Origin: Bdellovibrionales bacterium
Lineage (GTDB): Bacteria > Bdellovibrionota > Bdellovibrionia > Bdellovibrionales > UBA1609
Direction: 5' to 3'
DNA length: 64,000 nucleotides
Assembly: GCA_965205645.1 (NCBI GenBank)
Contig: OZ242172.1
Coordinates: 896,122-960,121 of the forward strand
Positions 24,408-25,436 of the stretch are shown in pieces. Below the pieces are notes generated by a model, which worked only from the letters and a program-made list of their open reading frames with translations, was not told the origin of the DNA and made no database searches. The position numbers were made by a program, and so were the translations under genes. Every line of letters begins with the position of its first letter. The first letter of the stretch is position 1.

Positions 24408-25436
24408 ATGAAGATTATCACTTGGAATGTAAATGGTATTCGCTCTGTTATGCGCAAGGGATTTTTATCTTTTGTTCAGGAGCACAATCCTGACATTTTA
24501 TGTATTCAGGAGAGTAAGGCACATCCAGATGCTGTGTCAGAGTTTGAGTCATTTGATAAACATAATTTGCAAGGTAGTGACAATAACGTAAGCGAAGCCA
24601 CGGCAAAAGTGTCCCCCGCGACTCGCGGGCATAATTTGCAAAGTAGTGACAATAACGTAAGCGAAGCCACGGCAAAAGTGTCCCCCGCGACTCGCGGGCA
24701 TAATTTGCAAAGTAGTGACAATAACGTAAGCGAAGCCACGGCAAAAGTGTCCCCCGCGACTCGCGGGCATAATTTGCAAAGTAGTGACATAGATGTACGG
24801 AATCGCGGCGAAATATCCCCCTCTTGGAGGGGGTATTGGTCTTTTGCGGATCGCAAGGGTTATTCGGGTGTGGTCACTTTTGTAAAGGGTGGAATTAAGG
24901 GTGTGTCTTATGGGATTGGCATTCGAAAGTTTGATGATGAAGGGCGTTTTGTCATTACGGATCATGGGGATTTTATTTTATTTAATATATATTTTCCGAA
25001 TGGTTCTCAGAGGGAGGAGCGGCATTTATTTAAGCAGGAGTTTTTGGAACGTCTTTTACAATATATAAAGCGGCAGCTGGCGATGGGGAAAGAGTTGATT
25101 GTTGTGGGAGATTATAATACCGCTTATTTGGATATAGATGTTTTTGATCCAGTATTATTAAAATCAGCGAGTGGTTTTTTACCGGAGGAGCGACATTGGT
25201 TTCAGAAGTTTTTAGATTTAGGTTTTGTGGATTGTTATCGGCATTTTCATTTGAAGGAAAAAAATAAATATACTTGGTGGTCTTATAGGGAGCATGCAAG
25301 ATTGCAGAATCGTGGGTGGCGGATTGATCATATTTGTGTGAGTGCTGGTTTACGGGATCGTTTGCATTCAGCGGATATTTTATCGGATCAGCTAGGGTCG
25401 GATCATTGTCCAGTTCAATTATGTCTTGGCGAATGA
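24408..25436 (+). CDS. xth: exodeoxyribonuclease III carrying a 91-codon in-frame repeat insertion
   Basis: WNVNG, CIQESK, YSGV, and a C-terminal WRIDH...SDHCPV identify the ExoIII/AP endonuclease family. It is 342 aa against the usual ~255. The excess corresponds to 24561..24833. Confidence 0.9.
   Translation: MKIITWNVNGIRSVMRKGFLSFVQEHNPDILCIQESKAHPDAVSEFESFDKHNLQGSDNNVSEATAKVSPATRGHNLQSSDNNVSEATAKVSPATRGHNLQSSDNNVSEATAKVSPATRGHNLQSSDIDVRNRGEISPSWRGYWSFADRKGYSGVVTFVKGGIKGVSYGIGIRKFDDEGRFVITDHGDFILFNIYFPNGSQREERHLFKQEFLERLLQYIKRQLAMGKELIVVGDYNTAYLDIDVFDPVLLKSASGFLPEERHWFQKFLDLGFVDCYRHFHLKEKNKYTWWSYREHARLQNRGWRIDHICVSAGLRDRLHSADILSDQLGSDHCPVQLCLGE
24561..24833 (+). repeat. GC-rich modular repeat array inside xth: 3 x 69-nt units + 66-nt terminal unit
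   Basis: Units start at 24561, 24630, 24699 and 24768. The unit is CATAATTTGCAA(A/G)GTAGTGACAATAACGTAAGCGAAGCCACGGCAAAAGTGTCCCCCGCGACTCGCGGG. The terminal unit ends GGAATCGCGGCGAAATATCCCCCTCTTGGAGGGGG. The total is 273 nt, or 91 codons. Confidence 0.95.

Follow-up and report, generated by a model that had tools for sequence, protein, structure and literature searches.

Introduction

Palindromic repeats that settle in frame inside housekeeping genes have been regarded as nearly unique to Rickettsia, whose Rickettsia palindromic elements (RPEs), RPE-1 to RPE-10, occupy such positions (Ogata et al. 2000 and later, as summarised in PMC10969869). Here we describe a family of modular, hairpin-bearing GC-rich repeats in a Bdellovibrionales bacterium (assembly GCA_965205645.1), based on a window of 64 kb of its 1,555,701-bp genome (contig OZ242172.1), where "the window" means the whole stretch of DNA that was analysed. 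We focus on xth, the gene for exonuclease III (ExoIII), which carries an in-frame tandem array of this family, and we conclude that the repeats form a new RPE-like family, apparently unrelated in sequence to the RPEs, which also builds variable tandem arrays.

Several other kinds of bacterial repeats share some of these traits. Mycobacterial interspersed repetitive units with variable numbers of tandem repeats (MIRU-VNTRs) are 40-100-bp units repeated in tandem at numerous scattered loci, with strain-variable copy number. MIRUs are oriented with their flanking genes and compatible with open reading frames (ORFs), and they lie between the cistrons of operons and are not known inside enzyme genes. 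The family described here resembles them in its tandem units, many loci, variable copy number and gene-oriented placement, and differs from them by standing inside enzyme genes and by having conserved GC-rich hairpins, which MIRUs are not known to have. BOX elements of Streptococcus pneumoniae are built from a head, variable internal modules and a tail, have strong hairpin potential, and are intergenic with an action at the RNA level; they are not known in frame in housekeeping genes. Our family is likewise modular and hairpin-bearing but, unlike BOX, is in frame in housekeeping genes. BOX elements have also been listed among those miniature inverted-repeat transposable elements, or MITEs, that bear ORFs (PMC10969869).

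QMITE1 and QMITE2 of Coxiella burnetii (PMC5896051), together with Correia and ERIC elements, are comparable in being small and non-autonomous, in belonging to a bacterium with an intracellular or host-adapted life, and in their occasional in-frame fusion with host ORFs. They differ from our family in being defined by terminal inverted repeats, often accompanied by target-site duplications, and in forming no in-gene tandem arrays. Repetitive extragenic palindromic (REP) sequences and bacterial interspersed mosaic elements, known together with REP-associated tyrosine transposases (PMC3733652), are similarly clustered GC-rich imperfect palindromes with stems kept by compensatory change. However, REPs are extragenic and have a conserved GTAG or CGTC tag, whereas 11 of the 17 independent sites of our family are intragenic and no such tag is conserved.

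The in-frame array of xth

The xth ORF of the window encodes 342 aa, compared to ~254 aa in homologs, in agreement with the excess of ~90 aa reported in the initial annotation. The extra sequence lies at window positions 24561-24833 and comprises three 69-nt units followed by a 66-nt terminal unit, giving 273 nt or 91 codons in frame. Direct reading of the sequence and Tandem Repeats Finder (24561-24789, period 69, 3.3 copies, 99% matches, score 451) both confirmed this layout. The host ORF and its units are:

24408..25436, plus strand: exonuclease III (xth) ORF, host of the array; 342 aa; Pfam Exo_endo_phos at residues 4-333, 2.8e-27
24561..24629, plus strand: type A unit 1; 69 nt; encodes HNLQGSDNNVSEATAKVSPATRG; head CATAATTTGCAAGGTAGTGACA, then body, then hairpin 24615-24629
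24630..24698, plus strand: type A unit 2; 69 nt; encodes HNLQSSDNNVSEATAKVSPATRG; hairpin 24684-24698
24699..24767, plus strand: type A unit 3; 69 nt; same sequence as unit 2; hairpin 24753-24767
24768..24833, plus strand: terminal unit; 66 nt; encodes 22 residues, HNLQSSDIDVRNRGEISPSWRG; hairpin CCCCCTC-ttg-GAGGGGG at 24817-24833

Units 2 and 3 are identical, and unit 1 has one base different. The terminal unit has a 22-nt head in common with the type A units, followed by a different body with the core GGAATCGCGGCGAAAT, and directly 3' of it is TAT TGG TCT, which encodes the YWS of strand beta-3. The array is GC-rich relative to the gene, as had been remarked, with a G+C of 0.52 compared to 0.40 in the flanks and 0.365 in the rest of the window. 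The perfect hairpin CCCGCGA-c-TCGCGGG had been attributed to every unit; it closes the three 69-nt units (0 matches expected from window shuffles) but is absent from the terminal unit, which has the C-rich and G-rich stem listed above instead. Similarly, the peptide proposed for the array was right in its repeat layout and needed correction in detail, given that unit 1 reads HNLQGSD..., not HNLQSSD..., and that the terminal unit encodes 22 residues. For a translated array, GHNLQSSDNNVSEATAK is one of the predicted tryptic junction peptides.

A structured RNA spanning the whole xth array was considered and rejected: the whole-array RNA fold was not more stable than shuffled sequence (z = -0.81), and local hairpins alone stood out. 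The element matched no known RNA family in Rfam, at either the gathering or the E-value threshold. As a separate observation, the segment 24817-24846, which is the xth terminal hairpin followed by TATTGGTCTTTTGC, had a terminator-like score in a simple scan and lies inside coding sequence.

The host gene: identity, selection and structure

The xth ORF has the Exo_endo_phos fold and the catalytic Asn, Glu, Asp and His residues. Its best match in PDB was Mth212 (3g91, E = 4.9e-70), with xth residues 1-43 aligning to Mth212 residues 4-46 and residues 139-338 aligning to 55-253, so that ~87 xth residues stand in place of an 8-residue connection. This alignment supports the earlier placement of the array between the catalytic QE strand region and the YWS strand beta-3, specifically in the connection from the helix after the QE strand to strand beta-3. 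We take the site to be at the start of that strand, whose end, in the known fold topology, is the DNA-contacting GYSG loop; judged by topology and not by coordinates, the insertion should be at the sandwich end remote from DNA. Among 120 homologs listed, one other long protein was present (P0002, 337 aa), the remainder having ~254 aa. More than 100 other homologs had no insert at this position, and the length of the xth ORF exceeds that of all listed homologs outside the clade by 35%.

We compared the window with three relatives: one contig of ENA assembly ERZ25067264 with RpoB 99% identical to that of the window (L001 and L010), a sponge-metagenome contig from SRR1576521 with RpoB 94% identical (L011), and a 1.41-Mb circular genome without the repeat family, ERZ25070167, with RpoB 86% identical (L012). 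Nei-Gojobori estimates for the ExoIII core gave a ratio of non-synonymous to synonymous substitution rates (dN/dS) of 0.091 between the window and L001, with 21 synonymous and 8 non-synonymous differences, and of 0.099 between the window and L011, at a dS of 0.79. Pairs with L012 had dN/dS values of 0.06-0.10, with dS saturated. All columns that were invariant in 49-50 homologs are kept in xth, including N9, E35, D235, N237, D307, D332 and H333. Given the dN/dS values of 0.09-0.10 and the retention of these residues, xth is a living gene under purifying selection, and the relaxed selection of a pseudogene, raised as a concern in the initial annotation, was not observed.

An AlphaFold2 model based on an alignment of 49 homologs had a confident ExoIII core, with a target-normalised TM-score of 0.89 against Mth212. 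Residues 51-135, located between helix 44-50 and strand 141-144, had a predicted local distance difference test (pLDDT) score below 50 and were without secondary structure. The insert is therefore predicted to be an unstructured loop on an intact ExoIII fold, consistent with the surface-loop location that had been suggested for it.

The xth locus in relatives

The gene order rpoB-rpoC-(one or two small genes)-xth-lysC-lysA is common to all four genomes. In L012, xth has no insert and reads ...AHPSDVDSELRNPFGRHS|YWSFADRKGYSG (...FGRHS|YWSF), with a normal loop. Together, the repeat-free L012 and the ~254-aa homologs indicate that the insert is lineage-specific; a native insertion of the same length and position, the other possibility raised at the outset, was found neither in L012 nor in the more than 100 homologs. 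The right junction, ...GGG|TATTGGTCTTTTGC (TAT TGG TCT TTT GC), is identical in the window, L001 and L011, and the content of the array to its left differs among the three:

Window: 3x69 + 66 nt, encoding 3x23+22 aa
L001: 2x96 + 24 nt, encoding 2x32+8 aa, with an extra nested CCCCCTCTGGGGG module in each unit
L011: an AT-decayed ~120-nt unit with a perfect 9-bp palindrome, and one 69-nt unit

The xth insertion is thus old and ancestral to the three sampled genomes: the shared site is observed directly, and it probably reflects a single event. No direct repeat was visible at the xth junctions, and the sole empty site (L012) was too diverged to fix the boundaries.

Copies of the family in the window

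A fuzzy search for the head, combined with alignment, recovered the family at 9 sites in the window, covering ~2.3% of it. In addition to xth, these sites are:

24253..24359, plus strand: degenerate copy, in the 5' leader of xth; can be aligned to the 28925 copy and lies within a block duplicated at 27945-29033
28925..29033, plus strand: copy upstream of an Rpn/YhgA-like ORF; site kept in L001 (14492) and L011 (24077)
30174..30312, plus strand: two type A units (69 + 69 nt), intergenic, just 3' of the Rpn/YhgA-like ORF
31955..32125, plus strand: two units, period 75 nt, intergenic; site kept in L001 (16600)
48663..48975, plus strand: in-frame array in the AmpD-like amidase ORF 48399..49394; type A unit, linker, two 75-nt type B units, terminal unit
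53476..53542, minus strand: single terminal-type unit in the rpiB ORF 53045..53536; first 21 codons including ATG
57025..57359, minus strand: four-unit intergenic array (72, 93, 93 nt + terminal unit), 3' of ORF 57430..58206
60292..60360, plus strand: degenerate single unit, in frame in ORF 60028..60717 (gene status uncertain)

The stop codon of the Rpn/YhgA-like ORF is supplied by a 5' linker module that precedes the units at 30174. In the amidase, residues 83-194 (112 residues) replace a 4-residue loop of AmpDh2, and the amidase of the relative with 99% identical RpoB has three extra B units, reaching 407 aa. The Pfam LacAB_rpiB match of RpiB begins at residue 23, and the element holds the sole canonical start codon upstream of the domain. 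The L010 ortholog of the 57-kb array has a period of 72 nt and three units, and the L010 region matching ORF 60028..60717 was called as two short genes.

Modules, reading frame, orientation and hairpins

Each unit of the family combines an AT-rich head that is conserved (CATrrTdTGCAAnnnnGTGACA), a body of one of a few kinds, and a GC-rich hairpin, which was present in every unit. An optional module consists of a 5' or linker hairpin followed by GACAyTTnnTTGGTAAA. The type A body ends in CCCGCGAnTCGCGGG, and the type B or terminal body has GGAATCGCGGCG followed by the linker hairpin or by CCCCC-loop-GGGGG. A 27-nt sub-module (AAKATPSGG; GCGGCGAAAGCAACCCCCTCTGGGGGC) can itself multiply, being present once in Ogt of the source genome and five times in that of a relative (L031 10352-10560; P0253 vs P0254). 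Comparison with human MGMT places the Ogt insert in the DNA-binding helix-turn-helix, at its turn. The longest tandem arrays had 7 units.

All 11 coding sites represented by DNA had the repeat in sense orientation and in a single frame, in which CAT AAT TTG CAA encodes His-Asn-Leu-Gln, and none of the roughly 35 units at coding sites had a stop in the host frame. Type A units have stops in both other sense frames, and in type A and terminal units all three antisense frames are open, meaning that stops alone would permit ~4 frames. Given that the antisense peptides are hydrophobic and Cys-rich and the sense frame is hydrophilic, selection on the protein product is the simplest filter behind the single-frame rule.

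Repeat orientation followed the gene strand at 13 of 13 informative sites, of which 11 were coding and 2 were located between co-directional genes; in L031, it flips with the gene strand within 7 kb. Replication direction was rejected as the determinant of orientation: GC skew is positive or near zero across the window, yet at 53 and 57 kb both the copies and their genes occupy the minus strand. All periods were multiples of three (27, 66, 69, 72, 75, 93 and 96 nt), including those of all five intergenic arrays, and a change in copy number therefore cannot shift the frame.

The hairpin stems vary in sequence with pairing kept, as in CGGCG-ggt-CGCCG, GTGGCG-ggt-CGCCAC, CCGGCA-ggt-TGCCGG and CAGC...GCTG. 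In the linker hairpin, examined in 13 hand-cut windows, 4 of 6 pairs change on both sides; the covariation score was reached by 0 of 500 shuffles and was far lower in slid controls. These hairpins are maintained, not merely inherited. No conserved GTAG or CGTC tag was located beside them, GTAG occurring in some heads only. Terminal inverted repeats were not detected in the four elements searched, single or arrayed, which had only local hairpins. By eye, the 5' linker resembled the type A 3' end in reverse complement, but the inverted-repeat search did not bear this out.

Array turnover between close relatives

Unit counts of the window and of its closest relative (RpoB 99% identical) differed at three loci: 4 vs 2 in xth, 4 vs 7 in the amidase, and 4 vs 3 in the 57-kb array. 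Units of the window xth array are 98-100% identical among themselves and 80-85% identical to the orthologous L001 units. More generally, units inside one array are 97-100% identical, compared to 65-85% identity between the xth and 57-kb arrays of the window and their orthologs in the 99% relative. The amidase B units are conserved between these two genomes, and their number alone differs. All 8 of the 8 window sites in the region shared with this relative are present there, and two are present in L011. We conclude that the insertions are old and that the arrays alone are changing. The modular family, the array turnover between relatives, the unit lengths in multiples of three and the age of the insertion all extend what had been noted from the initial reading of the sequence.

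Distribution within the clade and searches elsewhere

Sense-frame peptides were searched against 5.8 billion proteins, and the amidase insert was searched against 1.84 billion representative proteins without a word index. Both searches returned matches in clade members only. Besides xth, at least 15 unrelated clade proteins have in-frame inserts, which bears out the RPE-like behaviour that the initial annotation had proposed: a dispersed family, inserted in many hosts in one frame. In the source genome, the carriers are xth, the amidase, RpiB, Ogt, P0250 and an XerC/D-like recombinase with two inserts. Carriers in relatives include the 407-aa amidase, a PALP enzyme, P0249, P0252, AstB, PurD, BioD and a MurF-like protein, as well as TrhO with an insert at its N-terminus, Ogt, in which the 9-aa sub-unit occurs five times, P0257 with five 23-aa units, and a GGT-like protein with four separate inserts. 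P0260, initially a candidate carrier, was a false positive. On the second contig of a relative (L031, L032), nine more sites were located in ~40 kb:

L031/L032, sites in ORFs: PurD (N-terminus), BioD, Ogt, AstB, TrhO, an unknown 242-aa ORF (AT-decayed copy), a HEAT-like ORF (C-terminus)
L031/L032, intergenic sites: two arrays

Outside the clade, the head motif gave 8 chance hits, none in Rickettsiales, among 185,579 species-representative GTDB genomes (the source genome not being one of them, and no relative among them having the motif), which indirectly supports the earlier statement that the family is unrelated in sequence to the Rickettsia elements. In JGI metagenomes, the head-plus-core pattern had 0 hits and the head pattern had 18 hits, all without downstream family features. 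The repeat family is confined to this clade, and the host RpoB groups with Bdellovibrionales-labelled metagenome-assembled genomes. No prior description of the family or of its host was found in the literature searched, the coverage of which was incomplete.

Origin and persistence of the arrays

Our favoured explanation, with an estimated probability of about 0.8, is that the 273-nt block represents the local tandem expansion of a lineage-specific modular GC-rich repeat with the following history. The family would have spread no earlier than the separation from the L012 lineage and ahead of the divergence of the three repeat-bearing genomes, and one copy would have entered xth in the common ancestor of these genomes, probably in a single event. 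That copy could have survived because each module has one open sense frame, encoding a hydrophilic and probably disordered peptide that would be tolerated in a loop. Genic copies in general would have survived only if they were in sense orientation, in the open hydrophilic frame, and in a loop or at a protein terminus. Units would then have been duplicated, lost and exchanged, likely via slippage or unequal recombination at hairpin-bearing direct repeats, and xth would end up encoding a functional enzyme with ~90 aa of additional disordered loop. No function of the family was detected, and it is most likely selfish.

Other explanations were weighed against this history. One is that the host has co-opted the inserted loops, with a variable disordered peptide tuning the activity, partners or localisation of ExoIII and other enzymes. 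The insert has persisted in three diverged genomes (dS up to 0.8) under purifying selection, three of the insert-bearing proteins act in DNA repair or recombination (xth, Ogt and the XerC/D-like recombinase), and the hairpins are kept by compensatory change. Nevertheless, we consider host use improbable, given that neither the sequence nor the length of the peptide is conserved between xth orthologs, that intergenic DNA and wholly unrelated enzymes contain the same modules, and that the insert is without order in the structure model. It is considerably less credible that the array is absent from the protein, through intron-like removal from the mRNA or through ribosome skipping similar to that at the GC-rich 'byp' elements of Magnusiomyces mitochondria. 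A GC-rich, hairpin-bearing block in an AT-rich gene would fit such a scenario, but a removed element would not need to lie in the sole sense frame that is open in every module type, as it does at all 11 coding sites, nor to be free of stops in the host frame in roughly 35 units. Moreover, the lack of an Rfam intron or ribozyme match, the unremarkable whole-array fold (z = -0.81) and the position of the sole canonical rpiB start upstream of the RpiB domain, inside the element, all argue against removal or bypass. That xth is a pseudogene disrupted by repeat expansion is effectively refuted: although its ORF exceeds every homolog outside the clade in length by 35%, three genomes keep the frame intact, the dN/dS values are 0.09-0.10 (the closest relative showing 21 synonymous and 8 non-synonymous differences), the catalytic and metal-binding invariant residues are all kept, and the core was modelled with confidence.

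The possibility that the family is a MITE, moved by the neighbouring Rpn/YhgA-like (Transposase_31) protein or by another transposase in the genome, seems about as doubtful as host use, or slightly more so. The sole transposase-like ORF in the window (29171..30157; PF04754, 3.6e-19) has family copies on both sides, and the Rpn/YhgA-like gene occupies different loci in two genomes with 99% identical RpoB. However, the elements have no terminal inverted repeats, the two copies flanking the Rpn gene are in direct and not inverted orientation, the stretch over which the two Rpn copies are homologous (window 29045-30028) leaves the elements out, and the two genomes have no insertion polymorphism of the repeats. 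The full-length Rpn copy of the relative has no element within 4 kb. The Rpn/YhgA-like gene was accordingly rejected as the mobiliser, given that the full copy of the relative is elsewhere with no elements nearby and that there is no consistent association. A native low-complexity domain was ruled out by the intergenic copies and the copies in unrelated genes, and an assembly artefact was ruled out by three independent assemblies.

A more elaborate proposal, which we regard as unlikely though better placed than any of these rivals, is a new class of coding-safe mobile cassette, which would go beyond inert selfish DNA. Its hairpins would be the substrate for a putative structure-specific enzyme that copies or exchanges modules between loci; its modules, with lengths in multiples of three, an always-open hydrophilic sense frame and a head ATG usable as a start, would be suited to life inside expressed genes; and its spread or retention would be coupled to transcription direction. 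If this were true, the cassette would be the first such system outside Rickettsia, and the first with rapidly varying in-frame tandem arrays in essential enzymes.

Returning to local expansion of a selfish repeat, a number of points weigh against it, in whole or in part. The left boundary of the xth array has an ambiguity of ~5 codons, within which SEFESFDK may be either native loop or a decayed 5' linker module. Intergenic units also have lengths in multiples of three, which makes frame preservation a weaker argument for translation than it first appears; the array is presumably translated. In the region that the window shares with its 99% relative, neither recent transposition nor insertion polymorphism was seen, and the mobility of the family is deduced from its dispersal. 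Finally, the compensatory changes that preserve the hairpins hint at something beyond passive junk, with a possible nucleic-acid-level role for the element or its host, and the covariation set behind this, with its 13 windows, is small.

Comparison with Rickettsia palindromic elements

The family shares with RPEs the nature of short dispersed palindromic repeats, intergenic and unusually often in frame in unrelated housekeeping genes (PMC10969869). In both, coding copies are in one frame that encodes a conserved peptide, the sites are compatible with the protein fold, no transposase is known, and the host has a small genome and is eukaryote-associated, in our case probably. On the other hand, no sequence relationship was detected, as judged by the absence of the head motif from GTDB representatives and not by alignment to RPE consensus sequences, and the host belongs to another phylum, in a Bdellovibrionales-like lineage. 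Units here are modular and 66-96 nt long, compared to roughly 100-150 bp in RPEs. RPEs are known as single insertions, unlike the arrays described here, which reach 7 units and vary in unit number and type between close relatives. For an RPE in the guanylate kinase of Rickettsia, enzyme activity with and without the insert has reportedly been compared.

An independent case in another phylum, with an unrelated sequence, would show that the phenomenon recurs in small-genome, probably host-associated bacteria, and would offer a second system for asking how such repeats spread, why they are tolerated, and whether they seed new protein segments. The new property is that copy number varies inside essential enzymes over very short evolutionary distances with the frame never broken. 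These arrays are natural experiments on the extra loop that an enzyme can tolerate and possible strain-typing markers, as well as a warning for gene callers and ortholog-length filters.

Other features of the window and its relatives

The Rpn/YhgA-like gene (PF04754) is located at 29171-30157 on the plus strand of the window, with a full copy at L034 4001-4987 and, at the locus that the gene occupies in the window, a 92-aa remnant (L001 14517-14795). This suggests a gene that is mobile or that undergoes duplication and loss. A block of ~1 kb is duplicated at window positions 23300-24360 and 27945-29033; it contains a minus-strand ORF of 265-270 aa without a Pfam match, the upstream region of this ORF with a poly-A/poly-G tract, and a copy of the repeat family, and its two copies form the upstream regions of xth and of the Rpn-like gene. 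Six paralogous ORFs of 239-314 aa, all on the minus strand, are present at 22407-23126, 23309-24121, 27945-28742, 57430-58206, 58595-59539 and 60866-61690. Two of them were scanned, with no Pfam match in either, and the set may encode membrane or secreted proteins of a family specific to this lineage.

Other tandem repeats were also present in the window. An unrelated 77-nt repeat at 44236-44443 (2.7 copies, 97% matches) fills the rplO-secY spacer of the ribosomal-protein operon, and this spacer is also long in the relative (about 380 nt, L010 19307-19684). A 12-nt repeat, GGTCTAAATGTC, with 7.6 copies at 3077-3169, starts 3 nt after the stop of a PrpD-like ORF (1626..3074). Two in-ORF repeats were located on the minus strand: an array of Sel1/TPR type at 4441-5835, in which a 102-nt (34-aa) repeat occurs in 5.3 copies, and a 228-nt repeat with 1.9 copies at 7377-7931.

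The contig of a relative (L032 13621-16490; L031 2493-4231) encodes both subunits of topoisomerase VI, which is unusual in bacteria, together with LRR and HEAT-repeat proteins. This gene set hints at a eukaryote-associated lifestyle of the small-genome lineage.

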